From an uncultured Actinomycetota bacterium (GTDB lineage: Bacteria > Actinomycetota > Thermoleophilia > RBG-16-64-13): a DNA stretch of 64,000 nt. This document shows, one piece after another, positions 16,970 through 53,869 of the stretch (positions within the stretch are counted from its first letter, which is position 1; every line of letters begins with the position of its first letter). The notes below the pieces were generated by a model. The model had not been told where the DNA came from and did not search any database. It worked only from the letters and a program-made list of their open reading frames with translations. The stretch spans positions 127,245 to 191,244 of the forward strand of contig CAWCLH010000020.1 in the NCBI GenBank assembly GCA_963796315.1, in the 5' to 3' direction. A program made the translations under genes and the position numbers.

Positions 16970-17566
16970 GGAAGGAGTCGTTGGGACGGCTGCTGCTGGC
17001 CGTCGCCTACCTGGAGGGGGACTTTGTGCTGCGCTCCGGGAAGCGCAGCCGGTACTACCTGGACAAGTACCTGTTCGAGACGGAGCCGCGCGTGCTGCGC
17101 GGCATCGTTCGCGAGCTCTCGCGGATGATCCGGGAGGAGCTGGCCCGCGATGCCGGCTACCAGCGTCTGGCCGCACCGGAACTCGGGGCCGTCGCCTTGG
17201 CCGCCGGGGTCTCGCTGGAGACCGGCCTGCCCTTCCTGATCGTGCGCAAGGAGAGCAAGGAGTACGGGACGGCGAAAGGCCTGGAAGGCAGCCTGGAACC
17301 CGGGCGAGCGGGTGGCGGTGGTGGAGGACATCGTGACCTCGGCCGGCGCGGCCCTCTCTGCCGTGGGCAGGCTGCGCGACGCGGGCCTGGTGGTGGAGGA
17401 CCTCTACTGCGTCGTCGACCGCGAGGAGGGCGGTCGCGCAGCGGCCGCCGCGGAGGGGGTGCGTCTGCACCCGTTGTTCACGTCCACCGAGTTGGGGATC
17501 CTGCCCACGCCGGACCCTGACGGAGACGGTGGCACGGCTTCGTCGCGCGGCCGCGAGACCGCTTAG
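16966..17566 (+). CDS. pyrE: Orotate phosphoribosyltransferase; frameshift near 17300
   Basis: MRKESLGRLLLAVAYLEGDFVLRSGKRSRYYLDKYLFETEPRVL...VVEDIVTSAGAALSAV is a PRTase motif. Confidence 0.8.
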
Positions 17567-17671
17567 GAGGCCTAGAAAGGCGGTAAACCCTCGTTGCGCC
17601 CGATGCTTGTTGGGTCGGTGGGGGTCTGCTAAGTTGGGAAGCTGAGGGTGCAATCAAGGGAGGTAAGTACG

Positions 17672-17945
17672 GTGACCAAAGCAGAGTTCATCGACAAGGT
17701 GGCGGGGAAGACCGGCCTGAGCAAGAAGGACGCCGGCGCGGCGGTCGAGGCGTTCATGGAGGTCGTGAAGGAGTCGCTGAAGTCCGGTGAGGATGTACAG
17801 TTCACCGGCTTCGGCAAGTTCTATGTCCAGGCTCGCGAGAGCCGGCAGGGCATCAACCCGCAGACCAAGGAGCGGATCGAGATCGCGGCGAGCAAGGTAC
17901 CGCGGTTTTCGGCCGGCGCCTGCTCTCAAGAGCTCACTGAAGTAG
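17672..17945 (+). CDS. hup: DNA-binding protein HU; the 3' end needs a 1-nt correction
   Basis: GTG after GGGAGGTAAG. VTKAEFIDKVAGKTGLSKKDAGAAVEAFMEVVKESLKSGEDVQFTGFGKFYVQARESRQGINPQTKERIEIAASKVPRFSAG.. Confidence 0.85.
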
Positions 17946-31804: not shown

Positions 31805-31900
31805 AGGGGCGACGCCCGCCCGTCTGTCCGCGGCGGGCTTGTCGCGCCTGTTACGTTCTACTGTGCCCACTCCGAAAGCGACGCGAACCTGGCGGCTACC

Positions 31901-33075
31901 ATGAACGTACTCCTCATCTTCTCGTTGACTCTGGTGGCGGCGGTCCTCATCTCGGAGGTCGCCGACCGCACCATCCTCTCCACGGCCGTCCTGTTCCTGG
32001 CGGTCGGGTTCCTGACCGGCGGCGTGCTGTTGGATGCCATGCCCGAAGAGCCGGGGGACCCCATCGTCCTCGGGCTTGCCGAACTGGCCCTCTTCGCGGT
32101 GCTGTTCACCGATGGCATGAGGGTCCAACTCCACTACTTCCGAGAGCGATGGAGCCTGCCGACGAGGGCGCTGTTCATCGGTCTGCCTCTCACGCTTGTC
32201 TTGCGGGGCATTGCTGGCTCACGTGCTGGGCCCGTTCACCTGGATCGAAGCACTGCTGGTGGGCGCGGCTCTCAGCCCCACGGACCCGGTCTTCGCCGCC
32301 GCCATCGTGGGGCGGGAGGAGGTGCCCCCCCGCGTGCGGCACCTGCTCAACGTCGAGAGCGGACTGAACGACGGTCTCGCCCTGCCGATCGTGCTCGTTC
32401 TGCTCGACGGCCGCCAGCGGAAGCCGTCCGCACCTGCCGGTCGTCCTGGGAGAGCTGGGTCTGGGTCTCGCGGTCGGGTGCATCGTACCGTTCGCGCTGC
32501 TTTGGTGGCAAAGAGCGACCGTCTGAACGCCACGGAGTCGTACCTGCCGCTCTACGGCTTCGCCATCGGACTGCTGCTGCTCGCCATGACCAAGCCATGA
32601 CGAACGCCAACAGTTTCCTGGCCGCCTTCGTCGGCGGCATCGTCATCAACGCCTACAGTCCGCGCGCGCGCCACGCCTTCCACCGGTTCGGCGACCTGGT
32701 GGCCGAACTTTTCAAGCTGGCGTCGGTGCTGGTGTTCGGCTCGTTGCTGGCGACCGATGTCATCGGTCACGGCGTCCCCTGGCAGGCCTACGTCTTCGCC
32801 GGATCCGCGGTGCTCCTGGTGCGACCGATCGCCCTCGTGCTTCCCCTGCTGGGAACACACCTGACCCGGCGCGAATGGGTGACCGTTGCCTGGTTCGGTC
32901 CCAAGGGCTTCGCCTCCCTGATCTTCGCGCTGCTCATCATCACCAGCGGGGCGCCCCACAGCCGTGAGATGTTCCACTTCATCGCCCTCACGATCGGACT
33001 ATCCATCCTGCTGCACTCCTCGACGGACGTCCCCATCGCACGCATGTTCCGTGACCCGGACGACAGGCCGACCAG
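31901..33075 (+). CDS. NhaP-type Na+(K+)/H+ antiporter (CPA1 family); several frameshifts, 3' end uncertain
   Basis: MNVLLIFSLTLVAAVLISEVADRTILSTAVLFLAVGFLTGG...LLVGAALSPTDPVFAAAIVG...LNVESGLNDGLALPIVLVLL...AWFGPKGFASLIFAL is a CPA1 signature. The frame stays open into nuoA. Confidence 0.7.
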
Positions 33076-33205
33076 GCCGACAGTCGGCTTTCGGATGGCC
33101 GCTCATCCTCGTCCGGGCAGACCCCTGAGCGGGGCCGTCGCGGGCGTACGCATCGCTTGGCCTCGGGTAACGGCCGACAAGTGCGGTGGAACCGAGGGGA
33201 GGACG

Positions 33206-33532
33206 GTGCAGGGACAGATCGTCGGCGACTACGCCCTCGTCGGGCTCCTGGCTCTGGTGGGTACGGGCCTTTCCCTGTTGCTGGCGGCGGCCTACCGGCC
33301 GCCGGTCCGCGTAGAGCGGGTGCCGGCCGCCTGGGCCTCCTACCGCTTCGGCTTCCCCGTCTACGCCCTGATCTTCCTCTCCTTCGACATGGAGATGATC
33401 TTCATGTACCCGTGGGCGGTGGTGTTCGCGGACCTCGGGCTGGAGGCCTTCCTGGACATGTTGGTCTTCATCGCCATCCTCTCGGCCGGCATCGCCTACG
33501 CCTGGAAGATGGGGGGCCTGCGGTGGGAGTGA
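33206..33532 (+). CDS. nuoA: Complex I subunit A homolog (NuoA/ND3)
   Basis: GTG after GGAGGAC. ..YRFGFPVYALIFLSFDMEMIFMYPWAVVFADLG..LDMLVFIAILSAGIAYAWKMGGLRWE matches the NuoA core (FDxExxFxxPWA...YxWKxGxLxW). Confidence 0.65.
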   Translation: MQGQIVGDYALVGLLALVGTGLSLLLAAAYRPPVRVERVPAAWASYRFGFPVYALIFLSFDMEMIFMYPWAVVFADLGLEAFLDMLVFIAILSAGIAYAWKMGGLRWE

Positions 33533-33648
33533 GGCGGCGGACTCGAACGCGGCGAGGCCCACGGTGCAGACCGTAGCGAGGGCCGCCGCCGTACTGGCGG
33601 CGCTGGAGTTGGTGCGCGACGCTGACCTGGCTTCTGGAGCCGAGGGCG

Positions 33649-34471
33649 GTGCGCTCGGCGCCGGAAGCGGGGCCGGCCGCGCCGGTCGGCGTGCGCGGCC
33701 CGGTGACAGCGGCGGCGGGACCGGACCGCTGGCTCCGTCCGGCCGGGCCGGTGATGGCCCTGCTGGGGGTGGTGTTCGCCGCGGTCGTGATTCCCTTGGA
33801 CGATGGCCTGGTGGGGCGCGACCTGGGCATCGGGCTCTTCTACTTCATCGTCGTGGTGGATTTCGTGGTCTTGGGGCTCTCGTTGGCCGGCTGGGGGGCG
33901 AACACCCGCGCGTCGGTGGAGGTGTACTACCGGGCGACTGCTCAGCTCGTGGCCTACGTGGTACCCCTGGGCCTCGCCTACATCGGCGCCGTCATGATGG
34001 CCCGCTCGCTCTCGACCGTCGCGGTCGTCCGGGCACAGCAGGACCTGTGGTTCGTGGTGCTGCAGCCGCTCGGTTTCGTGCTCTACCTGGTGACCGGATT
34101 GATGCAGGCCTATCGGGCGCCCTTCATCGAGCCGTTCTCCGCCTCCATCGCTCACGGCGTGTATGGGTCGTCCGCCGGCTGGCAGGCGGTGCTCTGGCGC
34201 GTGGCGCTCTCCGGCACGCTCCTGGTCGTGGCGGCGATGGGAGCCGTGCTCTTCCTGGGCGGCTGGCAGGGCCCCGTCCTGCCCGGTCCCGCCTGGATGG
34301 CCCTCAAGACCTTCGCCCTGCTGGGCTTCATGGTCTGGGCGGGCAGCCCACGTCACACCGCTGCCGGTGGCGCGCATGCTCGAGCTGGCCTGGAAGGTCC
34401 TGATCCCGGTCGGGCTGGCCAACGTCCTCCTGGTCGGCGGGTTGATCCTGCTGGGCGTCGGTCCCGGGTAG
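33649..34471 (+). CDS. nuoH: Complex I subunit H homolog (NuoH/ND1), recognisable from TM2 onward; 5' boundary unclear; frameshift near 34340
   Basis: ..PDRWLRPAGPVMALLGVVFAAVVIPLDDG...FYFIVVVDFVVLGLSLAGWGANTRAS...APFIEPFSASIAHGVYGSSAGW...AWMALKTFALLGFMVWA(frameshift)AHVTPLPVARMLELAWKVLIPVGLANVLL. The conserved N-terminal quinone-loop motifs were not found in any frame upstream. Confidence 0.7.
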
Positions 34472-34481
34472 GGGGCGAGGG

Positions 34482-35497
34482 ATGGGCGCCGTCATGGAGT
34501 GGATCGCCTTCGCCCTGCTCGCCTTCATCGCCCTGGCCGGGGCGCTGGGCATGGCCACCACCATGAGCATGTTCCGCAGCGGCATCTTCCTCATGGCCTC
34601 CTTCATCGGGGTGGCCGGTCTCTTCGTGCTGCTCTCGGCCGACCTGCTCGGCCTGCTCCAGGTGATGATGTACATCGGCGGCATGCTGGTCATGATCCTC
34701 TTCATGGTCCTGTTCAGTCACGACCCGGGCGGCAGCATGATGGCCGGGATGGAAGGGCTTTCGCCGGTAGAACGCGCCTTCAGCCTGGGTCTGACGCCCA
34801 ACGAGGAGGAGTCCGATCAGCCCGCTGACGGTGGTCCCATGGAGGGGATGACAGCCGGGGCGCACGAAAGCCACGAGGGCATGGGCGACAGGCCCGGCGG
34901 CCACGAGGGTCACGGCGGCATGCGGTGGGCACGAGGGCCACGAGGGCATGGAGGGCATGGCGGGCGGCGGGCACGAAGGCCACGGTGGTGGCCACGATGG
35001 CGGGCGGCGGGCACGAGGGCGACGACGGCATGGAAGGCATGGCGGGCGGTGAACAGGAGGGCCACGGCGGCATGTCCATGGCGGACATGAGCATGACCAC
35101 GCCGGTGAAGCGCTGGGCGGCCCTGCTCGGCGGCGTGCTGGGCGTCGGCCTGATGCTGTTGATCCTGCTGCGACCGGCCTGGCCGGTCGCAGCTCAGGTT
35201 CCCGACCCCGACTCGGCCCGCCGGGTGGGCGAGCTTCTCATGGGCAAGTACATGATGGCCTTCGAGGGGGCCGGCCTGCTCATACTGATCGGTATCTTCG
35301 GCGCCGTGCTCCTGGCCCGGCCGGGTTCGTACCCCGACCCGGCGTCGCGCGCCGTGCCGGTGACGAGCGACGCGCCTCCGCCCCCCATCGCCGAGGACCG
35401 CCCGCCGTCGGCCGACGCGTTTGTGCCTTCCGCAGCGGGCGTCGAGACCGAGGTGCTGGCCTCGCACGGGGACCGGCCGGGCGAGGACGGACGTTGA
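34482..35497 (+). CDS. nuoJ: Complex I subunit J homolog (NuoJ/ND6) carrying a His/Met/Gly/Glu-rich repeat insertion; frameshifts inside the repeat
   Basis: MGAVMEWIAFALLAFIALAGALGMATTMSMFRSGIFLMASFIGVAGLFVLLSADLLGLLQVMMYIGGMLVMILFMVLF.. (NuoJ core), then the HEGH/MEGM repeat, then a TM helix ..WAALLGGVLGVGLMLLILL. Confidence 0.7.
34840..35100 (+). repeat. Imperfect tandem repeat (about 45-nt units) encoding (M)AGGGHEG(H/D)..GMEGMAGG His/Met-rich motifs inside nuoJ
   Basis: Repeated nucleotide blocks ggcatgga(g/a)ggcatggcgggcgg and gggcacga(a/g)ggc(c/g)ac. Every reading frame of the region carries HEGH/GMEGM-type motifs. Confidence 0.7.
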
Positions 35498-35805
35498 GCG
35501 TCCCCATCGAGGCCTACCTGATCGTATCCGCCGGCCTGTTCGGCATAGGGGTCTACGCCATCGTGGCCCAGCGCTCCGCCGTCATGATCCTCATGGGGAT
35601 CGAAGTGCTGCTCAACGCCATCGGGCTCAATCTCGTCACCTTCTGGCGCTTCGTCGCCCCCGGCGACTACTCGGCCCAGATCTTCACCATCATCATCGTG
35701 ACCGTCGGGGCGGTGGAGATGGGGATCGGGCTGGGCATCATGATGCTCCTCTTCCGCAACCGGCGGACCGTGCAGGTGGACCAGTACCAGGATCTGCGGG
35801 GCTAG
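35494..35805 (+). CDS. nuoK: Complex I subunit K (NuoK/ND4L)
   Basis: MSVPIEAYLIVSAGLFGIGVYAIVAQRSAVMILMGIEVLLNAIGLNLVTF...IIVTVGAVEMGIGLGIMMLLFRNRRTVQVDQYQDLRG. Confidence 0.85.
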   Translation: MSVPIEAYLIVSAGLFGIGVYAIVAQRSAVMILMGIEVLLNAIGLNLVTFWRFVAPGDYSAQIFTIIIVTVGAVEMGIGLGIMMLLFRNRRTVQVDQYQDLRG

Positions 35806-35814
35806 GGGGGCCGC

Positions 35815-37760
35815 GTGAGCCTGATCTTGCTCCTCGTCCCTCTGCTGCCCCTCGGCGTCGGTCTCGTGCTGACGGCGACCGCGCTTCGGGGCGGGGGTCA
35901 CCCCGGATCCGGGGCCGGTTGGGCGACGGCCGCCGCCACCGCCCTCTCCCTGGCGGGCGTGCTGGTCCTCACCGGCAGCGAGACCGCGATCGGCATGAAG
36001 TGGCTGGTGAGCGGGAGCCGCTCGCTGCCCGTGGGCCTCGAGCTGACCGGGCTGACGTGGTTCGCCTCGTTGCTGGTGTCCGCAGTCTCACTGGCGGTGG
36101 TGGTGTACGCGATCGGGTACTGCAAGGGCCCGGGCGGACCCGTTTCTTCGCGGGGCTCTCGTTCTTCATCGGGGCCATGCTCACCTTGGTGCTGGCCGAT
36201 TCCCTGGTGCTTCTCTTCGCCGCCTGGGAGGCCGTGGGTCTCGCCTCCTTCCTCCTGATCGGCTTCCACTTCCAGGAACCTGCTGCGCGGCGGGCGGCGC
36301 TCCTCGCCTTCGTCGTGACGCGGTTCGGCGACCTGGGTCTGTTGCTCGGCTGGCTGTTCCTCGTGGACCGGACCGGGACGGCGGCCATCGCCGAGGTCCT
36401 CGGCCAGGCGCAGACGGGGGCGCTGACCGGAGCGGAGCTGACGCTGGTGACACTGCTCCTCTTCGGGGCGGTGGTGGGCAAGAGCGCCCAACTCCCTCTG
36501 ACCGCCTGGCTTCCCGCCGCGATGGCCGGGCCCACGCCCGTCTCGGCCCTCATCCACTCGGCCACGATGGTCGCGGCCGGGGTCTTCCTGGTACTGCGGC
36601 TCTTTCCTCTGTTCCAGGCGGCGCCCGCCACGCTGAGCGTGCTGCTCTGGGTGGGTCTGGGGACCGCCCTCCTGGCGGCGGTGATCGCCACGGTCCAGAT
36701 GGATCTGAAGCGGGTGCTGGCCTGGTCGACGGCCTCCCAGCTGGGAGAGATGGTCCTGGCTCTGGGAGTCGCCGCTCCGCTCGGTGCCGCCTTCCACCTG
36801 GCGACGCAGGCCAGCTTCAAAGCGGGGTTGTTCCTGGCCGCCGGCGCGGTGGACCACGGTGCGGGCAGCCGCGACCTGCGCCACTTGGGAGGCCTTTGGC
36901 GGCGCATGCCGGTGACCTCGGCCGCCTTGGCCGTCTCGGGCCTGGCCTTGGCCGGGATCCCCCCGTTCGCCGGTTTCTGGAGTGAGGAACTCCTGCTGGC
37001 GGCGGCGGTCCGTCATGGCCCCTGGCTGGGAGCGGTCGTCCTGGGCCTGATAGGCCTCGCCGGGCTCTACATGGGACGGGCCGCCGCCGCCGTCCTCTTC
37101 CGCTGGCCGGGGGCGCCCGAGCCGGAGGCCACCGATCCCGGGAGGCCGATGCTCGCCGGCCTGGCCGGCCTGGCCATCGCGGCGGTGGGCGTGGGGGTCC
37201 TCCTGCAGGCCTGGGGGACCGAGGTCCTCCCCTACCCGGAGGAGCCCGGGGCCGGGGTGGCTTGGCGCTGGGCGCCGTGGCCATGGCGCTGGCCGGTCTT
37301 GCCGCCGGGGGTCTGTTGGTCCGCCGCCGGGGGCCGGTCGCGCCGCTGGCCCCCTTCGCACGGCCCCTCCAGGGGGCGGTCGAAGGGTGCGGTCGTCGGA
37401 CCCGGTCGGCTGGTCCTGGCGCTGGCCGGCGCGGTCGACCGCGTAGAGCTCCTCTTGGACGGCGCCGCCGGCGCCGCCGGTCGCTGGGCGCGTCACGCGG
37501 CCGGCGTGGTCGACCGACTCGAGGGTGGCCTGGACCGGGGTGCCCTCGCCGCCGGCGGCGGGGGTCTGGCCGCGGCTCGGCTGGTCGACCAAGTCGAGGA
37601 CGGTGCGTTCGCTCCGGGGGGCGACGGGTTGGGTCGGACGCTGTCCCGGGGGGGAGGCCTTCTCCGCGGGGCCGAGAGCGGGCGAGTCTATCTCTACACC
37701 TTGGCTCTCTTCCTCTGGCTGGGAGCGGCTGTCCTACTGAGCTACGTCTGGTGGCGGTGA
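35815..37760 (+). CDS. nuoL: Complex I subunit L homolog (NuoL/ND5); frameshift near 36150
   Basis: ..AWEAVGLASFLLIGFHFQEPAARRAALLAFVVTRFGDLGLLLGWLFL...KSAQLPLTAWLPAAMAGPTPVSALIHSATMVAAGVFLV...WSTASQLGEMVLALGV.. is the NuoL/antiporter-like signature. Confidence 0.8.
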
Positions 37761-37764
37761 CACG

Positions 37765-39233
37765 ATGCTGAGCGCGGTGATCTTCCTCCCCTTGGTCGGC
37801 GGTCTGGTGGTGCTGGCGTTACCCGCCGGCCGGCCGGACTGGGCCCGGCGCGTCGCCCTGGCGACCAGTCTGGTGGAGTTGGTGCTGGTTGCCATCGTCA
37901 TCGCCGGGTTCGACAGGGGGCGGAGTGGGCTGCAGTGGCGGATGGACACCGCCTGGATCCCGTCGCTGGGGGCCCGCTACGACGTGGCCGTCGACGGTAT
38001 CTCGTTGCCTCTGGTGGCCCTGACGGCGCTGCTCGCGGCCGTGGTCATGGTCTACGTCCTGCCCCAGCGCGACCGCGTGCGCGGGCACGCCTTCCTCTTC
38101 CTGTTGATGACCACCGGTCTGATCGGCGTCTTCGTCTCCCGCGACCTGCTGCTCTTCTACCTCTTCTTCGAGGTCGGCCTGGTGCCCATGTACTTCATCG
38201 TAGGTGTCTGGGGGCACGAGCGCCGGCGTTACGCGGCACTGAAGTTCTTCCTCTACACCCGGGCGGGTAGCCTGGCGATGCTCCTCTCCTTCCTCGGGAC
38301 TCTACCTGCATACCTCCCCCCGGACGTTCTCCCTGGACGCCATGGCCGCCCATCCTCCCCTCACCGGGGCGGGCGCCGGTCTCGCCCTGCTCGGACTGGT
38401 CATCGGGTTCGGGGTGAAGCTGCCCATCGTTCCCCTGCACAACTGGCTGCCCGACGCCCACGTGGAGGCACCCACGGAGGGCAGCGTCATGCTCGCCGGG
38501 GTCCAGCTGAAGATGGGGGCCTACGGCCTGGTGGCCGTGATGCTCCGGGTACTCCCCGAGACGACACGGCGCTACGGCTGGGTGCCTCGTGGCCTTGGCG
38601 CTTCTCACCTTGGTCTACGGGGCGCTGGCCGCGCTCGCGCAGCGCGACCTGAAACGGTTGGTGGCGTACACCTCCGTCAACCACATGGGTTACGTCCTGC
38701 TCGCCGTGGGTGCCTGGGCCCTCCTCGAAGATCCCGGTGCGCGCCAGTTGGCGCTGAACGGCGCCGTCGTCCAGATGGTCAGCCACGGGCTCTTGACCGG
38801 CGGGTTGTTCTTTCTGGTCGGCATGCTGCAGGACCGGGCCCACACTCGGGATATGGGCCGCTTCAGCGGACTGCAGGCGCAGGTCCCCGTGTACAGCTGG
38901 ATGCTGGCACTGTTCGCCTTCGGCTCTCTGGGCCTGCCCGGGCTCTCGGGGTTCATCGCCGAGTTCCAGGTGCTGGGCGGCACGATCGGCGTGGGCGTCT
39001 GGGCCGCGGCGGTGGCGGTGCTGGGATTGATCGTCATCACCGGGCTCTTCGTGCGCATGGTGGTGGACGTCGTGATGGGATCCCCGGCCGCGCCCGTCAC
39101 GCTGGCCGACCTCCGGCCCCGCGAGCTGACCGCGCTCGTGCCGCTGGCCGGCTTCTCCCTGCTCATCGGCCTGCTCCCCGTGACCCTCGTGGCTGTCGTC
39201 GACGCCGCGACCGCAGCGCTGGCCGCGCTCTGA
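37765..39233 (+). CDS. nuoM: Complex I subunit M (NuoM/ND4); two frameshifts
   Basis: [19 protein letters not shown]...[46 protein letters not shown]...[41 protein letters not shown]...[18 protein letters not shown]. Confidence 0.8.
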
Positions 39234-39242
39234 CGGTCCGGG

Positions 39243-40742
39243 GTGGCCTCCACCGGCGCCATGCAGTGCCTCGACCTCTGGGCCGTCCTGCCCGAGTTGG
39301 TCCTGGCCGGCACCGGCTTGGTACTGGTGCCGCTGGCCGGCTTCGTGCACGGGCACGGTCGATGGCGCTACCTTCCCGCCGCCGTCGCCGCCATCGCGCT
39401 CCTGGCAGCCGGCGGACTGACGGTGCGCATGCTCGGTTGGCAGAGCCAGGCGGTGTTCTGCGATACCTACGCGTTGGACGGGTTCGCCCACGTCTTCAAG
39501 CTGCTGCTCGTGACCGGGGCGCTCCTCAGTCTGTTGGTGATCGCGGTCCACTTCCGGGACCGGGACCAGGTGGCCCACGCCCCCATGGCGCTCCTCTTCG
39601 TCACCTTGGGGGGGATCGGCCTTGCCTCTGCCCTCGACCTGGGCTTGATCGTCCTCTTCCTCCAGATGCTCAGCCTGCCGGCCTACCTGCTCATCGCCTT
39701 GGTGCGCAGTGACACGCGCGGCAACGAGGCCACCCTGAAGTACTTCATCTACGGGGCGGCCGCTCTGGCCATCATGGCCTACGGTCTCACCTTCCTCTAC
39801 GGCATGACGGGCAGCCTGGAGCTCCGGACCATCGGACAGGCCTTGGCGGAAGGGGGCGGGGACGCGGTGTGGGTCGCCGTGACGCTGGCCTTCGTCGTCG
39901 TGGGGTTCGGCTTCGAGATGACGCTGGTCCCCTTCCATTTCTGGGCGCCCGATGTCTACGCCGGGGGCACGGCGGCCGTCACCGGTTTCATCTCGGTGGT
40001 GCCCAAGTTGGCTGGGTTCGCCGCCGCGCTCCGGTTCGTCCTCCTGGTGTATCCGGATGGGTTGAGCGGCTGGCCGACGGCGCTGGCGGTACTGTCCGTG
40101 GCCACCATGACCCTGGGCAACCTGGTGGCCCTCCGTCAGACCCGCCTCAAGCGCCTGCTGGCGTACTCGAGCATCGCGCAGGCGGGCTACGTGCTGGTGG
40201 CCGTCGCCGTCAGCTCCCGGGTGCCGAGCGCACTGCCTGCGGTCGGCTACTACCTGGCGGCGTACCTCTTCATGAACCTGGCCGCCTTCGCCGTGGTCGC
40301 TCAACTCGAACGGCAGACAGGAAGCGACCGGATCGATGGGGTGCGGGGGTTGGGCCGGCGGGCACCCCTGCCCGCCGCCGTGCTGGCCCTGGCATTGCTG
40401 TCCTTGGCCGGCATCCCGCCGCTGGCCGGCTTCGCCGGCAAGGTGTTGGTGCTGACGGCCGCCATCGACGGGGGCATGGCCTGGCTGGCGGTCCTCGCGG
40501 CGCTCAACATGGTGATCGCGCTGGCCTACTACCTGGGGGTCATCGCCCAGATGTACCTCAGTCCGCCGCCGGAACCGGCCCTGCCCCACGAGACCGGGTC
40601 CCTGGGTCCCTGGACCGCCCTCCCCACCTCACCGCTTCACTGGCCCGCCTATGCGCTGACCACCGCCGGCACCCTGGTCTTGGGCATCGCGCCCTCGCTC
40701 GGACTTGCCCTGGCGGAGCGCCTGCGCGACCTGGTGACCTGA
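39243..40742 (+). CDS. nuoN: Complex I subunit N (NuoN/ND2)
   Basis: 499-aa intact ORF. ..[45 protein letters not shown]...[33 protein letters not shown]...[18 protein letters not shown]. Confidence 0.85.
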
Positions 40743-40850: not shown

Positions 40851-41561
40851 GTGAACGGCTGGAACGCGTCATCGGATGAGCAGCGTCCTGTGCAGCGAGT
40901 CACCCGGTCCAAGCTCCAAGCGAGGCGGTGGTACGACCGGCTGAGCCCCTGGTACGACCTTCTGGAAGGGCGGTGGGAGCACCCGGCGATCGGGCAGGCG
41001 CTTGACCTGCTGGCGGTGGAGCCCGGGGAGCAGGTGCTGGAGATCGGACCGGGCACGGGTTGGGCGCTCATCCGGATGGCGGAGGAGGTGGGGCCCGCCG
41101 GCAGGGTCTTCGCCGTGGACCTCTCGCCGCGGATGGCCGCCGCCACTCGGGACCGCCTCGCGGACGCGGGCCTGGGTGATCGCGCCCAGGTCAGCGTGGG
41201 GGACGCCTGCCGGCTCCCCTTTCCGGACTCCCGATTCGATGCCGTCTTCATGAGCTTCTTTCTGGAACTCATGGACTCCCCGGATATCCCGGTCGTCCTG
41301 GGCGAATGTCGGCGATGTCTGCGCCCCGGGGGCCGCCTGGCGGTGGCCTCGCTCTCCCGCAAGGGAGGCGGGGTGGCGCGGTGGCTCTACGAGCGGGGGC
41401 ACGATCTGTTCCCCTCCGTGCTCGACTGCAGGCCCATCGACGTGGAGGCTTCCGTCGCGAATGCCGGCTTCCTGGTACGGGAAGCTCGGCTGATCAGCAT
41501 CGAGCGCCTGCCCGTCGAGTTGGTGCTGGCGCGCCGGCCTGGGCACGACCCGAGGAGGTAA
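40851..41561 (+). CDS. Class I SAM-dependent methyltransferase (UbiE/COQ5-like)
   Basis: ..GEQVLEIGPGTGWALIRMAEEVGPAGRVFAVDLSPRM...GDACRLPFPDSRFDAVFMSF (motif I E/DxGxGxG plus post-I acidic residue). Confidence 0.7.
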   Translation: MNGWNASSDEQRPVQRVTRSKLQARRWYDRLSPWYDLLEGRWEHPAIGQALDLLAVEPGEQVLEIGPGTGWALIRMAEEVGPAGRVFAVDLSPRMAAATRDRLADAGLGDRAQVSVGDACRLPFPDSRFDAVFMSFFLELMDSPDIPVVLGECRRCLRPGGRLAVASLSRKGGGVARWLYERGHDLFPSVLDCRPIDVEASVANAGFLVREARLISIERLPVELVLARRPGHDPRR

Positions 41562-46622: not shown

Positions 46623-48134
46623 CTACGCCGGACACGCGTCGTCACCAACCAAGCGGACAGCGCCAGGATCACGGACGACGACCAGGCCGATCGGGATCAC
46701 CAGGTATGGGCTGAGAGGGTGGGAACGAGGTCCGTAGATACTCGCCGCCGTGACGTCGACCGACACCGAGCCCACCATGAAGGGGTGCACCATGCAGTAG
46801 TACATGCTGGTGCCGGGCGCGTCGAAGCGCCGGGAGAAGCTATCTCCCGGCGACAGTGGGAGCGAGTTCCAGCTGCCGGCGGGCTGCTGCGAAGCCGGTT
46901 TGCTTGGGTCCCAGTTGTTCTCGGTGCTGGTGTGGGAGGCCTTGTCCTTGTTGACCCAGACCACCGTCGTCCCCGGGAGCACGACCAGGTCCTTGGGGTG
47001 GAAGGCCAAGTCTTTGATGGTGACGTAGACCGTCTGGGACTGCTTCGCGGCGACGGCCACGGGCGCGACTGGGTTGTCGGTGACGGCGCGGGTGGTCGTG
47101 GTCTGGTTCGGCGACACGCCCGGAATGGGAACGTCGACCGCCGTGCGGAGGTCGGGCTGGCCGCCCCGGTTCCGGATGTAGGTGACCAGCCGCCAACGCG
47201 TATCCTCGGAGAGGGGCGTGTGCGACGGCATGAGTTTCCCGGGGACGCCCTTGGTGATGATGGTGAAGAGAGCGGTGTCACTGCCCCCGCCGTAGTACCA
47301 ATCTCGGTCGGACAGCTTGGGTGCGAGCCAGGTGCCGTTGACCTCTCCGCCGTGGCAGTAGAAGCAGTACAGCTTGGCGGCCGACTCGCCGTCGTTCACC
47401 TCCGCTTGGTCGTAGGGCGTATAGGGGTTCTTGAGCGTCTTGACGGCCCCTGTTTCCACGGCGGCCTTCGAGGCCCGATCGAAAAGGCCCGTCACGTAGA
47501 CCGCCAAGGACCAGCGGGCCTCCTCCGTGAGCTTGTCCTTCTGCGGCGGCATGAAGGTGCCGGGGATACCGTTGGAGACGATCTCGAAGTTCCGTCCAGT
47601 GACAGAGTTGCGCGCGGTGAAGTCCGTGGGGCGGGGCCAGACGTAGGGGTCGCCCTTGGCCCAGGACCCGTCACCCTTGCCTTTGTCTCCATGACATGGG
47701 GCGCATTTCTGCAGGTAGTTCGCGCCGGCCATGGCCAGATCGGGAGGTTTGTCGCTGGTCTTCCAGTTCTTGTCCCACTCCCGAGTGGTGTCCAGCGGCT
47801 GAGTCTCCAGAAAGGCCAGGATGTCGTCGAAGCCCGCGCGACTGATGTTGGGGTGGGCGGGCATGGCCGTGCCTGGGAGACCCTTCTCGACGATCGAGAA
47901 GGCCATGTCCGCCGTTTCCTTGACGGCCGTCAGGTTCGCCGGAGGAGGTATGAACGTGGAGTGGGCGGGACCGTCCCCCTCTGCATCCTTGTCGTGGCAG
48001 ATCTCGCACTCGTGCAGGTAGGCATTCTTGCCGGACTGCACGTTTCCCCGCCCACCGCCGTCGAGGCGCCCTGCAGCAGGACAAAGACGGTGAGCGCGAG
48101 GGCCTAAGAGCGGGAGGACAGCGACGGTGCGGCC
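46623..48134 (-). CDS. Triheme c-type cytochrome fused to a C-terminal cupredoxin domain; N-terminal signal region has indels
   Basis: Three CxxCH motifs (CEICH, CAPCH, CFYCH). The C-terminal domain ..TVVWVNKDKASHTSTENNW...YYCMVHPFMVGSVSV has type-1 copper ligands (H, C, H, M). Confidence 0.7.
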   Translation of the reverse strand, partial: GRTVAVLPLLGPRAHRLCPAAGRLDGGGRGNVQSGKNAYLHECEICHDKDAEGDGPAHSTFIPPPANLTAVKETADMAFSIVEKGLPGTAMPAHPNISRAGFDDILAFLETQPLDTTREWDKNWKTSDKPPDLAMAGANYLQKCAPCHGDKGKGDGSWAKGDPYVWPRPTDFTARNSVTGRNFEIVSNGIPGTFMPPQKDKLTEEARWSLAVYVTGLFDRASKAAVETGAVKTLKNPYTPYDQAEVNDGESAAKLYCFYCHGGEVNGTWLAPKLSDRDWYYGGGSDTALFTIITKGVPGKLMPSHTPLSEDTRWRLVTYIRNRGGQPDLRTAVDVPIPGVSPNQTTTTRAVTDNPVAPVAVAAKQSQTVYVTIKDLAFHPKDLVVLPGTTVVWVNKDKASHTSTENNWDPSKPASQQPAGSWNSLPLSPGDSFSRRFDAPGTSMYYCMVHPFMVGSVSVDVTAASIYGPRSHPLSPYLVIPIGLVVVRDPGAVRLVGDDACPA

Positions 48135-48228
48135 TCGTATGCGTGTGGTCCTCCAAGCCATCGGCCACCTCCGACACCTTGTGAATCATGTCGCACACGA
48201 GGTACCGCCGGCTCTGCTTGAGTAAACG

Positions 48229-50151
48229 TTACGTAAACGCCGATTTTGTCCGAGGAGGGCGGCTGCTCTTGGCCTGGTCCGCGAGCCCGACCGTCAGCGC
48301 GACGCCACCCCCAGGGGAGAGGCCGCCGGCAGCTCGGCGGAGGTCACTCGGAAGGTGTGCGTCACCGGGGGCAGGCCCTGGGGGCGGTAGGTCCACCCGG
48401 ATGTCGCCGGAGAAGGGCACGGCCGCGGGCAGCAGCAGACCGAACCGGCGCGTGGCGATGGTCGACTCGGGCAGGGCGGTCAGCGGACGCTCGCGGCCGC
48501 CGACGGTGGCCAGCACCTCACCGGCGGCACCGGGGCCGCCCGGCCTGCGGTCGGTCACGTCGACGGCCATCACGGTGGCGTCGCCGGGAGCGCGCATGGC
48601 TCGCAGGGTGAGCTCCACCCGCCCCGAGGCGCTGGTCGAAGCGAAGCCCAACCGCTGGTGCGCGTCCCACGCGTCCTTGCTGGTGGAGAGGCTGAGAAGC
48701 ACCGCCACCGTGAGGACGACGCCCAGGCCCACCGCGAGCTCGAGCGACAGGCTGCGCAGGAAGGTGCTCAGCCGGAAGGGGCGCCCCTGCGCCTCGTCAG
48801 CTCGGAGCATGGGGAGCAGCCGGTAGCGGTTGACGGCGCCGAACAGGAGCAGCCCGCCGATAAGGACCAGCTTGACCGCCGAGGTCCCGCCCGTAGGTGG
48901 TCCGGAAGAGGAGGCTGGGCGAGCCCACCTGGAGCTGCGAGTTGTAGAGTCCGGTGACGATCAGGTAGAGGGTCGCCGGCAGCGCCAGGGTCGAGAACCG
49001 CTCGAGCACCCGTCGCGGCCCGTCCCCGGCGCTGTCGGCCGAGGCCTCGGCTTTCAGGCGCCGAAGTGCCAGGATCAGCGGCGGAAGACCACCCAGCCAC
49101 AGCGAGAATGCCAGCAGGTGCGTCCAGTCGACGGCGACGGCCAGCCGCGCGTGCGGGGTGACGGCCGCGTGAGCCGTCAGGCTGAACGTCAGCAGCAGGC
49201 CGGCCGCCGCCGCTGTGCGCCACCCACAGGCGCCACCGCTCTCGTCCCAGCGGGGCGGGGAGGAGTCCCAGCACCGACAGGAGGATCGCCAGCAGCACGC
49301 GTGCGATCCAGATCCAGCCGTACCTGGTCCCCAGCAGCTGGGCGACGGCCGCCGCGGGGACCTGATGGTAGAGAGGCGAGGTAGAGATCAGCTGGGGCTG
49401 CGACAGGCCGACCGGCTGCAGCAGCGCCTGTTGAGTCTGGCTCGCCTGGAAGACCAGGAGCAGCAGGCTGCTGAACACCAGCAGTAGGCCGCCCGCCAGG
49501 GATAGTCCGCGCAGGTCGCGCAGGAACCGGCTGTCGAGGTCTACCAGCGCGGCCCGGTCCTCTTCCCGGGCGCGCCTCAGCCGGCCTCGCAGTATGGGTC
49601 TCCAGACGACCAGGACGAACCACAGGGCGCCCGTGGCCAGCATGGCTCCCACGAGGCCGACCCAACGGATCAGGCTGACGCCTCCGGTCAGGCTGAGCGA
49701 CATGGGAGGGGTGACGGCCGGATCGCGCACGTCGGGCACGGGAAGGAGCGCCAGCGGGTCCACGGCACCGCCGAGGGCGAAGACGAAGCTGTTCTGAGAG
49801 GTGTCCCCGTCGCCTGGCGCGGACCCACCACGAGCCGCGATAGGTGGCGTCGGGGACCGAGGCGGGCAACGAGACCCGCACGACCAGCAGGGAGGGATCG
49901 AGCTTCGTCGGTGCCGGCGCGATCTGGGTGCCGGCGCGATCGAACACCTCCACCTGCACGAAGCGCGGGTCCAGCACCTCGCTGAAGCGCAGGACCAAGA
50001 CCGGGCCCGCCGTGCCCTGGGCCGGCGACACCTGCCAACCGATCAGCTCGGAGTGGGCTCGGGCAGGCGCCGCAAAGACCGAGCTCGAGAGAAGCAGCAG
50101 AGCTGCAGCTACCACCGCCGTCACCAGGAGGCGTCGTCTGGCCACCACCAT
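48229..50151 (-). CDS. copCD: CopC-CopD fusion copper-resistance/copper-uptake membrane protein (YcnJ-like) with an extra C-terminal extracytoplasmic domain; frameshifts
   Basis: N-terminal CopC-like domain (..AHSELIGWQVSPAQG...LVLRFSEVLDPRFVQVEVFDRAG...DATYRGSWWV). It is followed in shifted frames by a polytopic CopD-like membrane domain and a C-terminal soluble domain. Confidence 0.6.
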
Positions 50152-50411: not shown

Positions 50412-51994
50412 GTGAGCGACCAGGAGGACCGGTCTGGGCAAGGCGAGGGTCGTCTCGCGCAACCAGCGTCCGACGTTCCAGAGGAGGAACGAGCAAGGGG
50501 GTATTTGAAGGATCGCTATGGTTCGGGCGCTGAGGTCATCACCGGCTTCAGCGGAGTCGTCTACGAGCACGAGGACAGCGCTGCTCGGATCTGGCTTCTC
50601 AGCAGCGTGGTGTGGTTCATCGTGGTCACCACCTTCGGCATCATCATCGCCACCGAACTGGCCATCCCCGAGATGTTTCACGGCATTCCCTGGCTGGTCT
50701 TCAGCCGGGTGCGACCCTGTCACGTGGAGGGCGTGATCTTCGCCTGGCTCACCACGATGTACTGGGGAGCCATCCTGTACTTCAGCCCCGTCTGCTGGGG
50801 ACACGCCGGCTCTGGGGCGAGAACTGGGCTTACTGGTCGGCGTGGGTCTACAACATCACCCTGACCGTCGGCTTCATCGGCATCCTCAGCGGAGGCAGCC
50901 AGGGCCGCGAGTACGCCGAGTTTCCCTGGATCGTGGACGTGTTCATCCTCGGGGTCTTCATCCTCAACGTCGTCCTGTTGGTAGGGACGGTCACGGTCCG
51001 GCACGTGCGTCCGCTGTACGTCAGCATGTGGTGGGCCCTGGCGGCACCGATCTGGGTCTCCGCCTCGATCTTCATCGAGAACGTGGTCTGGCGCCCCAAC
51101 GGGAGCATCTGGGGGGCTCCCTCCGGCAGCCTACCCACCGGTATCCACGACGTCATGATCAACTGGTGGGGGAACCACAACCTCTTCGGACTGTGGCTCA
51201 CTCCGGTGCTGATCGCGGTGACGTACTACTTCGTCCCCCGGATCACCAATACCCCCCTCTACAGCCACACGCTCTCGCTGATCTCGTTCTGGGGCATGAT
51301 CTTCGTGTATGCGGCCGTCGGCGATCACCACCTGCTGCAATCGCCCACGCCCGGATGGCTCAAGACCATCGCCTCGGCCAACAGCGTGTTCATCCTCATA
51401 CCGGTGTTCGCGTTCTTCACCAATGTCTTTCTCACCATGCGAGGACAGTGGGAGAGGTTCTTTAGCAGCCTGCCCCTACGCTATATACTGACCGGCTTTG
51501 TCTTCTACATCCTGGTGAACATCCAGGGCGCCGGCCAGGCCATCCAACCGTTCAACCGAATCATCCACTTTACCTACTTTGTCATCGGGCACTCACACCT
51601 CGCCCTGTTAGGTGGATTCACCATTCTCGGTATGGGAGTCATCTACTACATGTTGCCCCATATACTGGGCAAGCCACCCTATTCCCGAACGCTCGCCGAA
51701 TGGCAATACTGGTTGGTCACCTTCGGTTTTCTGCTGTTCTTCACCTCACTCACCATCGCCGCGTTTATCCAAGGCCAGAGCTGGTTGAACGGCCAGCCCG
51801 AGGTGAACGTGCTTCCGCAGCTGCGTATCTGGAACATCACCCGTCTCATCGCCGGAGTGATGATCTACGCCTCGGCCTGGATCCAGGCGTACAACGTGCT
51901 CATGGTCGTCGTGGTCAACACGAGGGAGCGCGTGGCCCGCAAGACCCGGAACGATGCCCGCTCTGCCCTGAGCACGAGCGGCGTCCGGCCGTGA
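50412..51994 (+). CDS. ccoN: cbb3-type (C-family) heme-copper oxidase subunit I, CcoN; frameshift near 50800
   Basis: GTG after GGAGGGAG. ..IWLLSSVVWFIVVTTFGIIIATELAIPEMFHGIPWLVFSRVRPCHVEGVIFAWLTTMYWGAILY.. matches the CcoN N-terminal helices. Conserved His pairs (..GDHHLLQSP.., ..IGHSHLALLGG..). Confidence 0.8.
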
Positions 51995-52004
51995 GAGGGG
52001 GTGT

Positions 52005-53465
52005 GTGATGGCTCGCGAGTGGTTGCCTGAGTACGAACTCTCGCCTCGCAACTGGGGCACGCACCCTCCCAAGAAGATGATGATGACGCCGCTGATGATC
52101 CTGCTCGGCGGTTTCTACGCCTTCGCGGTGCCGACCTTGGTGGCGGCCTTCTTCCAGCTGATGTTCTTCAGCGCACCGGTATCCAACGAGTGGGCTCCTT
52201 TGGCCGCATCCGCCGAGCGGGGACGGGCGGTCTACGTCTCGAACGGCTGTGTCTACTGCCACAGCGGCTTCAGCCGTCCGCAGGACGTGCGCAACGGCCT
52301 CTACTACCTCTACCCGCGCGTGTCCCTGCCCGGCGACTACGTGACCAGTGACAGCAGTCCCAACGTGTTCGGTACGGCCCGCATCGGTCCCGACCTCAGT
52401 CACGAGAGCGGCTTCCACCCGGACGACTGGCAACGGGCGCACTTCAACGACGCCCGCTTCGTTACGCCCTTCTCCATCATGGCCCGGTTCGACTTCCTCA
52501 ACGACCAGCAGGTGGAGGACCTGATCGCCTATGTGCAGACGTCCGCCGGCAAGAGCGGGCTGGTCAGGTACGCCGGCGAACTGTACATGAAGAAGATCTT
52601 CCTGGCGGCCAACGGGCTCACCGAGCAGGACATCCCCAAAGGCTACACCGCTGACAAGCTGACGCTCAAAGAAGTTCAGATGAAGTACGTGATGAACGCC
52701 CCGGAGGCGCCCAGCGCCACCGTGGACGGACTTCCCTTCCCCGACGTCGTCAACTTGAACGTGGTGGATCGAAGCTACTGGCTGGTCTCCAACCCCATGC
52801 CCCTGACGACGGGGAACCTCATCGAGGGTCGCCGGATCTTCCAGCAGCGCTGCCAAGGCTGCCACGGCCAAGGGGGCGCGGGCAGCAGTGAAGCCGCGCG
52901 GTTCATGCGGCCGCTGCCCGCTGACTTCACCAGCGAGGACGACCAGGCAAACGGCTCGGATGCCGGCCCCGGCGACTTCTACTATCGGGTCCTGCGCGGT
53001 ATTCCGGGCACGGCGATGGAGAACTTCGGTTCTCGGCTGCGCGTCGACGACATCTGGAAGGTCGTCCTCTTCCTCAAGACCATCCCCAACGGGGGACTGC
53101 AGGCCGACCGTGTGCCCACGCCCGACATGTACGTGCAGTGGAAACCGGGCTCGGACATCATGGGTTACGTGCAGAAGCACGCCATCGATCAGAACAAACG
53201 CTTCATCGGACAGGACACTCCCAGTGACACCGACCCCTTCATGCTCGAGGCCAAGCGGGAGTGGGCCGGCATGAACGACAGCGACAGCTTCACCGTGCCC
53301 GGCTACGGAGAGGTCTCGCTGAGCGCGGCCGCCCGGGACATCAAGGCCATCTACGACAACCTACTCAACCAGGGGTGGAGCGACTTCACCGCCCGCGGAG
53401 GCCACCCGGTCCCGCCGGCCGAGCAGAAGACCGCCGCCCCGGATCTGTCCAGGGAGATGCGGTGA
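52005..53465 (+). CDS. ccoO: cbb3 oxidase cytochrome c subunit, CcoO-like monoheme domain fused to a second CcoP-like heme c domain
   Basis: N-terminal TM anchor. ..YVSNGCVYCHSGFSRP...RIGPDLSHESGFHPDDWQRAHFNDARFVTP (CcoO core). Second CxxCH ..QQRCQGCHGQGG... 486 aa, intact. Confidence 0.8.
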   Translation: MMAREWLPEYELSPRNWGTHPPKKMMMTPLMILLGGFYAFAVPTLVAAFFQLMFFSAPVSNEWAPLAASAERGRAVYVSNGCVYCHSGFSRPQDVRNGLYYLYPRVSLPGDYVTSDSSPNVFGTARIGPDLSHESGFHPDDWQRAHFNDARFVTPFSIMARFDFLNDQQVEDLIAYVQTSAGKSGLVRYAGELYMKKIFLAANGLTEQDIPKGYTADKLTLKEVQMKYVMNAPEAPSATVDGLPFPDVVNLNVVDRSYWLVSNPMPLTTGNLIEGRRIFQQRCQGCHGQGGAGSSEAARFMRPLPADFTSEDDQANGSDAGPGDFYYRVLRGIPGTAMENFGSRLRVDDIWKVVLFLKTIPNGGLQADRVPTPDMYVQWKPGSDIMGYVQKHAIDQNKRFIGQDTPSDTDPFMLEAKREWAGMNDSDSFTVPGYGEVSLSAAARDIKAIYDNLLNQGWSDFTARGGHPVPPAEQKTAAPDLSREMR

Positions 53466-53869
53466 TGGCCGCGGAGAGGAGGTGGACCATGCATGATCGA
53501 TCGGGCTGGCGGCTGCTGCTTCCCATCCTCGCCGTAGCGCTCCTCGCGGCGATGGCCGTGGGATGGGCCGGCTGCGGCAGCACGCCCGCCGGCGTCACGG
53601 TCATCAAGATGCAGGGGGTGCGCTTCGTCCCCGCGGAGGTGACCATCAAGAAGGGCACCAAGGTCCGCTGGGTCAACGAGGACAAGACCGCGCACACCTC
53701 GACCTCGGACGACTTCAAGGTGGGCGAGCAGAACCCGCCGACTGCGTGGAACTCGGAACCCCTCAATCCCGGGGACTCCTGGGAGCGGACGTTCGATTCG
53801 ACAGGGGACTTCCCGTTCCACTGCATGGTGCACACCTATATGAAAGGCAAAGTCACGGTGACGGAGTAG
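53464..53869 (+). CDS. Cupredoxin (plastocyanin/amicyanin-like blue copper protein), predicted lipoprotein
   Basis: ..LLAAMAVGWAGCGST (lipobox). ..VRWVNEDKTAHTSTSDDF...FPFHCMVHTYMKGKVTVTE gives the Cu ligands H, C, H, M. Paralogous to the cupredoxin domain at 46623..47000. Confidence 0.75.

Follow-up and report, generated by a model that had tools for sequence, protein, structure and literature searches.

The question raised by this locus is why a membrane subunit related to complex I should carry a long loop rich in histidine and methionine. The subunit is a NuoJ homolog encoded in a 64,000-nucleotide (nt) stretch of contig CAWCLH010000020.1 from an uncultured Thermoleophilia bacterium (Actinomycetota), the whole of which is here called the window, and its gene lies in a nuoA-H-J-K-L-M-N cluster. 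The organism has 69% GC, and best hits likewise put it near Actinomycetota/Thermoleophilia. On balance, we think it probable that the loop is a putative cytoplasmic antenna or sensor for a soft metal, probably copper, on an ion-translocating module derived from complex I. The strongest evidence for a metal-related function comes from substitution at the same site, because sequence relatives hold heavy-metal-binding domains (HMBD) either in the same NuoJ loop or in a fusion with a NuoD-like protein.

The two open reading frame (ORF) pieces of the gene (34482-34919 and 34997-35497) were scored against Pfam, and both matched PF00499 (NuoJ/ND6, Oxidored_q3; cut-off 33.2 bits), the N-terminal part at profile positions 1-60 with 63.3 bits and the C-terminal part at positions 71-146 with 38.7 bits. 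Because both flanking halves match this profile, the His/Met-rich tract is an insertion between transmembrane helices 3 and 4 (TM3 and TM4). In the short sister NuoJ proteins, DPGG runs straight into MGxMDM, and this junction therefore marks the insertion site. The protein has the five TM helices and the invariant MMYxGG in TM3 of the NuoJ/ND6 superfamily. The family profile matched the solved homologs NdhG (6HUM chain G) at 1.7e-17 and Escherichia coli NuoJ (3RKO chain J) at 2.6e-09, and the extra sequence in these alignments falls between TM3 and TM4. It had been stated in the original prediction, made by reading the sequence, that canonical NuoJ/ND6 has no such loop. In the profile alignment the solved homologs have roughly 20 residues between TM3 and TM4, and the window protein has about 125 amino acids (aa) there in total, with conserved Met-rich flanks. 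The same prediction had placed a single helix after the repeat; in fact TM4, TM5 and a C-terminal tail lie downstream of the loop. The gene is divided as follows.

34482..35497, + strand: nuoJ homolog of about 339-340 aa after two frame corrections, with PF00499 in both halves and a stop that overlaps the nuoK start
34482..34715, + strand: TM1-TM3 core with family-invariant Met residues (GMATTMSMFRSG, LQVMMYIGG), from invariant columns and the AlphaFold2 (AF2) helices of P0001, the closest intact homolog
34716..34793, + strand: conserved segment after TM3, SHDPGGSMMAGMEGLSPVERAFSLGL, from the alignment; D81, P82, G83, G84, M86, M87, M90 and E97 are invariant
34794..35071, + strand: hypervariable His/Met/Gly/Glu/Asp-rich loop, predicted to be disordered (AF2 per-residue confidence, pLDDT, below 50 over the equivalent P0001 loop)
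35072..35104, + strand: conserved Met motif MSMADMSMTTP directly before TM4; M205, M207, T209 and P210 are invariant
35105..35497, + strand: Lys/Arg anchor, TM4, surface helix, TM5 and a proline-rich and acidic C-terminal tail, from the C-terminal Pfam part and AF2 helices

The AF2 model of P0001 (mean pLDDT 59) was used for helix positions (3-29, 35-54, 59-81, 167-185 and 199-235) and loop disorder only, and a Foldseek search with it against the PDB gave no significant match, the best being NdhG (6l7o_G, E=0.47). None of the ten NCBIfam NuoJ equivalog models reached its cut-off (best NF005163, 74.5 vs 174 bits). The Pfam scan of both halves gave PF00499 only, so the window loop itself contains no HMBD (PF19335, YTCPMHPE...CPxCGM). 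The loop and the Met motif at its C-terminal end, about 104 aa together, contain 34 Gly, 15 Glu, 13 Met, 11 His and no Cys, and the loop has four HxxM, four HxxH and four MxxM motifs.

The His/Met/Gly-rich tandem repeat that had been noticed within the NuoJ homolog was confirmed by Tandem Repeats Finder (TRF), by shuffling and by the PF00499 matches on either side. A period of 42 nt (14 codons) was found by TRF at 34922-35074, with 3.7 copies, 76% matches and a score of 178, and a looser version of the same repeat runs from 34899 to 35074 (4.4 copies). This score was reached by none of 200 codon shuffles of the nuoJ homolog (maximum 72) and by none of 300 triplet shuffles of the loop alone (maximum 53). 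The repeat proper measures about 175 nt and not the 260 nt first estimated; only the wider tract coding for His, Met, Gly and Glu, at about 34794-35104, is longer. All the peptides quoted earlier were found, each in its own frame segment and not, as had been claimed, in every frame. The reading follows frame 0 to 34922, frame 1 at 34924-34995 and frame 2 from 34997, and the remaining two frames of every segment encode Arg/Trp/Pro-rich junk. Two +1 corrections are needed for read-through, and the protein stitched in this way keeps its His/Met-rich peptide and aligns to the family over its full length.

34899..35074, + strand: imperfect tandem repeat (TRF and shuffles), consensus unit G-M-A-G-G-G-H-E-G-H-D-G-M-E
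34920..34926, + strand: frame change 1 (frame 0 to 1), explained either by a single surplus base at 34923 or, measured against the repeat unit, by a deletion whose length is not a multiple of three
34993..34999, + strand: frame change 2 (frame 1 to 2), explained either by a single surplus base at 34996 or, measured against the repeat unit, by the loss of 14 nt

The two frame changes raise the question of whether the repeat was collapsed or expanded during assembly, or whether the gene is a decaying pseudogene, in which case the organism would lack the His/Met peptide altogether. They lie in the repeat and can be read as deletions of 5 nt and 14 nt relative to the 42-nt unit, as in a local collapse, and many other genes of the window are frame-broken too. 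Frame breaks were counted by tblastn against the proteins of L001, the closest intact relative (an Actinomycetota metagenome-assembled genome, MAG; about 75% nt identity), which gave three in copCD, two each in nuoM and nuoJ, and one each in nuoH, nuoL and a hypothetical gene; the Na+/H+ exchanger gene upstream of nuoA is likewise split. At least ten frame changes occur in about 11 kb of neighbouring non-repeat genes. For conserved coding sequence this is a rate of about 0.9 per kb, and two breaks in the 1-kb nuoJ are therefore unremarkable. It follows that the repeat, which had been held to cause the frameshifts, is not needed as their cause. Moreover, intact homologs carry the same type of loop with in-frame repeats, the corrected protein aligns with them end to end, and GC content at third codon positions tracks the corrected frames, in a plot too noisy over the whole window to tell gene boundaries from frameshifts. 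The pervasive breaks between 31.7 and 56.3 kb point to a low-accuracy consensus assembly, widespread gene decay being less likely, and we regard an artefact or a pseudogene as unlikely. Programmed frameshifting was rejected because comparable breaks occur in unrelated neighbouring genes.

A survey of NuoJ homologs, which had been proposed at the outset, found the loop to be a family trait of constant His/Met/acidic composition. The stitched protein matched 472 homologs of 245-390 aa, with E values down to 1e-95, and a genome scan gave at least 71 loci, spread over more than 15 groups at the level of phylum or class. Among the hosts are about 20 Methylobacterium/Methylorubrum species, Deinococcus, Trueperaceae, Chloroflexota, Ignavibacteria/Bacteroidota, Thermoleophilia/Actinomycetota, Desulfobacterales, Acidobacteriota, Burkholderiales, Rhodanobacteraceae, a cyanobacterium and Verrucomicrobiota, most of them from soil or freshwater and not marine. 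In an exhaustive profile search, 60 representatives (50%-identity clusters) were found at E<=1e-30, followed by a sharp fall to ordinary NuoJ at about 1e-15 to 1e-20. The NuoJ-loop family is conserved and horizontally spread. Its core shows 50-60% identity between phyla and 8.7% Met, with 14 invariant Met located in GMATTMSMFRSG, in LQVMMYIGG, in DPGGxMMAGMxM right after TM3 and in GMDMSMTTP right before TM4.

The loop itself cannot be aligned between lineages and varies in length from about 13 to 178 aa (median 84), while its composition stays constant (G 18%, H 14%, D 12%, E 10%, M 8.5%, Q 6.7%, C 0%). His makes up 7-22% of all but one loop of at least 25 aa, in genomes of 34-74% GC. By comparison with within-loop shuffles, M-x-H (z=+14), H-x-x-M (z=+13) and H-x-x-H (z=+9) are enriched, z values that ignore relatedness and internal repeats, and adjacent MH, HM, MM and HH are avoided. 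Of 69 homolog genes, 18 have tandem repeats of their own, unrelated to each other, with periods that are all multiples of three. Therefore, in-frame repeat expansion is the normal mode of evolution of the loop, and the 14-codon repeat of the window fits it. The best explanation is that the composition and the HxxM/MxH/HxxH spacing are kept by selection while the length changes through in-frame tandem duplication. The loop of one member, P0052, triggers a precomputed Pfam ZIP match.

By comparing these proteins with more distant relatives, three types of arrangement were distinguished. In type 1, NuoJ relatives of 249-534 aa (P0168, P0150, P0157, P0144, P0152 and others) carry one to six HMBD in the TM3-TM4 loop and sometimes at the C-terminus too. 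In type 2, NuoJ is short (about 170 aa), and a fusion of five HMBD with a NuoD-like protein is encoded between nuoA and nuoH. This fusion protein of 577-720 aa contains an (HEG)8 tract and His-rich linkers, a motif matching the window loop. It is found on plasmids of Sulfitobacter, Paracoccus and Rubrobacter and also at loci L074 and L075, and its neighbours form copper islands with genes for a P-type ATPase, CsoR, CopZ, multicopper oxidase and CopB. Type 3 is that of the window, with a disordered His/Met loop and no NuoD-like gene. Thus, in all three types this face of the complex carries a metal-binding element, and only the carrier varies. A homolog of the 49-kDa subunit of complex I fused to heavy-metal-binding domains appears to be undescribed.

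L085, 7239-15803: type 1 operon CusF-nuoA-NuoD-like-nuoH-nuoJ[HMBD]-K-L-M-N beside a DUF305 gene; the NuoD-like gene has no HMBD
L081, 8262-17489 (Sulfitobacter plasmid): type 2 operon nuoA-(NuoB remnant)-[5xHMBD+NuoD-like]-nuoH-short nuoJ-K-L-M-N
L082, 8521-17627 (Rubrobacter tropicus plasmid): type 2 operon
L083, 5488-14486 (Paracoccus plasmid): type 2 operon

Upstream of the sister operon, a DUF6629 gene, a lone truncated antiporter-like gene (Proton_antipo_M) and an ECF sigma factor gene recur.

L081, 5681-6367 and 4205-5428: recurrent genes upstream of the sister operon
L083, 2192-3598: recurrent gene upstream of the sister operon

These comparisons also bear on the idea that the loop is a neutral low-complexity spacer, that is, a slippage-prone disordered linker without a ligand, tolerated since the loop lost its partner with the peripheral arm. 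The extreme variation in length (near absence in some members included) and the independent tandem repeats would be expected of such a spacer, and the Gly content of the loop follows genomic GC (r=0.43). However, the composition is constant over the whole range of GC contents and more than 15 lineages, Cys is absent, and the His/Met spacing is non-random. Furthermore, the flanking Met motifs are invariant, the genomic context is related to copper, and folded metal-binding domains occupy the same site in relatives. We therefore find a neutral spacer quite unlikely.

The proposed metal antenna would be mounted on a module without a peripheral arm. All homolog loci that were examined keep, like the window, the order nuoA-H-J-K-L-M-N, and no nuoB, C, D, E, F, G or I was found in any of these clusters. 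In about 57 loop-type loci with both genes called, nuoA adjoins nuoH and no NuoD-like gene is present there. The window genes other than nuoJ are as follows.

33215..33532, + strand: nuoA homolog, 105 aa class, 89% identical to L001 NuoA by tblastn; keeps the FDMEMIFMYPW Asp/Glu motif
33565..34471 (start approximate), + strand: nuoH homolog (PF00146, 1.3e-32; tblastn), with a frame change near 34330-34350
35494..35805, + strand: nuoK homolog (PF00420, 7.6e-22), with both membrane Glu kept (consensus)
35815..37760, + strand: nuoL homolog (Pfam, tblastn), with one frame change near 36060-36260
37765..39240, + strand: nuoM homolog (tblastn), with two frame changes
39243..40742, + strand: nuoN homolog (tblastn), intact

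The two nuoH ORFs, 33649-34566 and 34163-34471, are in different frames. NuoL (TIGR01974, 423.6 vs 407.5 bits), NuoM (TIGR01972, 497.8 vs 263.8) and NuoN (TIGR01770, 339.8 vs 332.6) pass their TIGR cut-offs. NuoA (65 vs 145 bits) and NuoH (132 vs 399), like NuoJ, miss their NCBIfam equivalog cut-offs, and the first 53 or so residues of NuoH are unaligned to NuoH models, the alignment starting only from about model position 79. The canonical quinone site includes a YECG-type TM1-2 loop in NuoA/ND3, the Glu of the NuoH 'SYE' motif and the PFDxxEAExEL motif of the NuoH TM5-6 loop. Set against these motifs as generally known, the family consensus of NuoH has AQLVAYVVPLG in place of 'SYE', so that the Glu is lost, and PFlEpf in place of the acidic TM5-6 motif, and the NuoA consensus is without the YECG-type motif. 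It looks as if the quinone-side half of the E-channel has been remodelled and the proton-side half, with both Glu of NuoK, conserved. The intact antiporter-like subunits and the carboxylates of NuoK and NuoA suggest that the module still moves protons. Met residues flank the conserved Asp/Glu of NuoA (FDMEMIFMYPW). A redox role, of the kind speculated on for a copper-oxidation-driven pump (PMC8233155), was rejected, as no cofactor-binding motif was found in the seven subunits.

It is with these subunits that the cluster can be weighed as an alternative membrane arm of an ordinary complex I, sharing the housekeeping NuoB-I, or as an Mrp-like Na+/H+ 'marine adaptation' pump, the loop being incidental or regulatory. 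The literature reads partial nuoAHJKLMN operons in this sense (PMC3314556, PMC6002675, PMC6676996), NuoL, NuoM and NuoN pass their subfamily cut-offs, and in the window the cluster is closely preceded by a Na+/H+ exchanger gene. The low scores of NuoA, NuoH and NuoJ, the loss of quinone-site motifs and the unaligned start of NuoH speak against it, as do the mostly soil and freshwater hosts and a context of copper, not sodium, and we consider it very unlikely.

The copper context was first noted as a copper-handling cluster about 10 kb from the locus, and this cluster is real and lies 6-13 kb from the nuo genes.

46623..48161, - strand: multi-haem cytochrome c fused to a plastocyanin/azurin-type cupredoxin (PF13442, PF00034, PF00127), the nearest copper-related gene
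48394..50073, - strand: copC-copD fusion homolog (tblastn), with three frame changes
50838..53866, + strand: cbb3-type oxidase genes (CcoN, CcoO/FixO; 50838-53462), then a cupredoxin gene

In L001, these genes adjoin nuoA directly; in the window, the nuo cluster is flanked by the Na+/H+ exchanger and a methyltransferase gene. Across loci, neighbours were identified by unbiased clustering of flanking ORFs and Pfam. A P1B ATPase with an HMBD N-terminus recurs in 20 loci from six taxa. Other recurrent copper neighbours are CsoR-type repressors, CusA-type RND pumps with CusB, DUF305, DUF326/Csp, multicopper oxidase with CopB, CopCD, a CDF transporter, cupredoxin, HMA chaperones and ScsC/DsbD/Cox11/SCO1. 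With BLAST seeds alone, at least 34 of 72 loci have a copper-gene neighbour, and the association recurs in many phyla. Clusters are plasmid-borne in Methylobacterium and Rhodopseudomonas, and on the conjugative plasmid of the latter the cluster lies between CsoR-CusBA/DUF305 and a relaxase gene.

The ND6 TMH3-4 loop of mitochondrial complex I is situated at the hinge beneath the peripheral arm. There it makes contact with NDUFA9, a subunit of that arm, and it governs the TMH3 pi-bulge 'gate' (PMC9699679). As the homologs NuoJ, ND6 and NdhG have the TM3-TM4 loop on the cytoplasmic (matrix) side, the window loop is predicted to be cytoplasmic, and the numbers of Lys/Arg in the short loops agree weakly with an N-out/C-in topology. 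The original prediction had compared the tract with Met-rich segments of CueO, PcoC/CopC and CusF. A copper-type tract is upheld by composition, spacing, copper neighbours and the HMBD of relatives; the comparators are less apt, since they are periplasmic while the loop is cytoplasmic by homology. The least probable alternative, which we likewise consider very unlikely, is a periplasmic metal sponge similar to SilE, PcoE or CusF that buffers Cu(I)/Ag(I) or passes it to efflux systems. In its favour, Cu/Ag proteins of the periplasm typically use His/Met chemistry of the HxxM kind, the neighbours include CusF, multicopper oxidase, CopB and CusBA, and an HMBD is found in periplasmic CusB too (NCBIfam match). 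Against it, the homology places the loop on the other side, the HMBD in the loop and at the C-terminus share one side in a five-TM protein, and the alternative HMBD carrier is a NuoD-like protein of the peripheral-arm type.

From these comparisons we infer the cytoplasmic location, the metal binding, the identity of the metal and the mechanism and direction of transport, which for the antenna or sensor could be combined as follows. The loop would be attached to the TM3 pi-bulge 'gate' helix, at the position that serves true complex I as docking site for its quinone module, and would capture or sense a soft metal, most likely Cu(I)/Cu(II) and possibly Ag. The bound metal might then be passed into the Met-lined NuoJ/NuoH region, or might gate ion flow. 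Coupling of the metal step to the proton-motive force (PMF) would fall to the three antiporter-like subunits, most plausibly for the expulsion of Cu+. The simplest coupling would be metal export driven by PMF, or metal-gated ion flow.

Several points weigh against this proposal. The nuoJ homolog is frame-broken in the window. The cytoplasmic side rests on homology and weak positive-inside statistics, and the TM4-5 loop also has about three Lys/Arg. Met-rich Cu(I) motifs are typically periplasmic, and Zn, Ni and Co are also bound by His/Asp/Glu-rich loops. Several family members are almost loopless (12-24 aa), and the antenna would therefore be dispensable for the complex, an accessory. Furthermore, about half of the loci have no recognised copper gene within 10 kb when simple seeds are used. 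In the window the copper genes lie at the distance given above and resemble cuproenzyme supply (cbb3, CopCD), not resistance, so that this context could equally mean copper supply.

A wider hypothesis, which we hold only tentatively, is that the nuoAHJKLMN clusters and their HMBD-bearing relatives form an unrecognised class of complex-I-derived, PMF-driven heavy-metal transporters, in which a cytoplasmic metal-binding input replaces the quinone module. The input would be the His/Met-rich NuoJ loop, HMBD inside the loop or the HMBD-NuoD fusion, and Cu+ would take a path via the Met-lined NuoH/NuoJ/NuoA region. The cost of moving each metal ion would be borne by several proton channels, which could give a driving force like that of an ATPase with no ATP spent. 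So far, the partial nuoAHJKLMN operon has been described solely as a putative 'marine adaptation' proton or sodium pump, and there is a real chance that it represents a new functional class here. No paper was found that describes a His-rich loop in NuoJ, HMBD insertions, HMBD with NuoD and copper, or a general copper link, and on complex I-like modules and copper resistance only one paper, on Marinobacter, was found (PMC8233155).

If true, metal-binding elements in place of a redox module at the input site would be a new design that links the best-studied proton pump to copper homeostasis, and the 'marine adaptation' operons would have to be reassigned. It would also account for the presence of such clusters on plasmids and within copper islands of Methylobacterium, Deinococcus, Rhodopseudomonas, roseobacters and many uncultured lineages. 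Moreover, an insertion on the gate-controlling TM3-TM4 loop of ND6 would be a natural experiment on how the pi-bulge gate is actuated.

Some further neighbours were observed. Directly upstream of nuoA in the window are genes for a CLC channel with CBS and TrkA-C domains (27356-29446, + strand) and for the frame-broken Na+/H+ exchanger (31900-33200, + strand); in L001 a CDF metal exporter and CopCD stand in their place. A class I methyltransferase dependent on S-adenosylmethionine (Methyltransf_11/25) is encoded just 3' of nuoN in distant hosts and is maybe an accessory gene of the cluster.

Window, 40851-41561, + strand: methyltransferase
L001, 18032-18706: methyltransferase
L077, 16232-16612: methyltransferase
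L084, 21644-22261: methyltransferase

A gene for a dehydrogenase dependent on pyrroloquinoline quinone (PQQ; 44745-46613, - strand) adjoins the cytochrome c-cupredoxin fusion (46623-48161, - strand), and together they look like a periplasmic electron-transfer chain into the nearby cbb3 oxidase. In L076, a Chloroflexia MAG locus otherwise without a recognised copper gene, a gene of the MbnB/TglH/ChrH family (DUF692), which includes the methanobactin maturase, follows nuoN directly (16872-17675).

By comparison with known systems, the window NuoJ shares with canonical NuoJ/ND6/NdhG the fold family, five TM helices and the Tyr/Gly-rich conserved TM3, and differs in falling below the equivalog cut-offs and in having no peripheral arm encoded with it. 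The partial nuoAHJKLMN operon has been described among the horizontally acquired 'marine adaptation genes' of Salinispora, Streptomyces and Kocuria, with Na+/H+ pumping proposed for life in seawater (PMC3314556, PMC6676996, PMC6002675). These operons have the same seven genes in the same order, with NuoJ annotated as hypothetical. Neither the loop nor a copper link is mentioned in these three papers, and the three genera were not among the loci returned by our genome scan. Kocuria also gained copD and czcD with its partial nuo operon, genes that adjoin the cluster in L001. In Marinobacter atlanticus CP1, a nuo-like cassette lies in a cop operon and is co-expressed with copper genes, and a copper-linked ion pump was speculated on by the authors (PMC8233155). 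As in the copper-linked clusters found here, complex-I-like membrane genes are embedded in copper resistance genes; however, this cassette appears to be a sister type, with a NuoD-like gene, another gene set and no NuoJ loop described.

For the loop, the closest chemical parallel is given by the 'molecular sponges' SilE and PcoE, disordered and Cys-free proteins whose HxxM/MxxH motifs bind Ag+/Cu+ (PMC5008109, PMC10080550), the HX2M/MX2H motifs of disordered SilE binding Ag+ (PMC10080550). The window loop is likewise Cys-free, predicted to be disordered and dense in HxxM, HxxH and MxxM. SilE and PcoE are soluble and periplasmic, whereas the NuoJ loop is part of a polytopic membrane subunit and predicted to be cytoplasmic.

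Cytoplasmic low-complexity segments rich in His, or in His and Met, occur at the N-termini of CopB-type P1B ATPases and in the loops of CDF and ZIP proteins, where they are thought to capture or sense metal. They resemble the loop of the window, predicted to be cytoplasmic, in being His-rich segments on what would here too be a metal transporter; the carrier is different and there is no sequence homology. Complex I membrane modules have been re-used with other electron inputs (hydrogenases, formate hydrogenlyase, Mbx, Fpo) or with none (Mrp). The Mrp multisubunit cation/H+ antiporter is similar as an assembly of NuoL/M/N-like and NuoK/J-like subunits that is driven by PMF and has no peripheral arm. 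On the other hand, Mrp has MrpB, E, F and G and lacks NuoH and NuoA, and the window-type clusters are the reverse, with NuoH and NuoA present and no MrpB, E, F or G.

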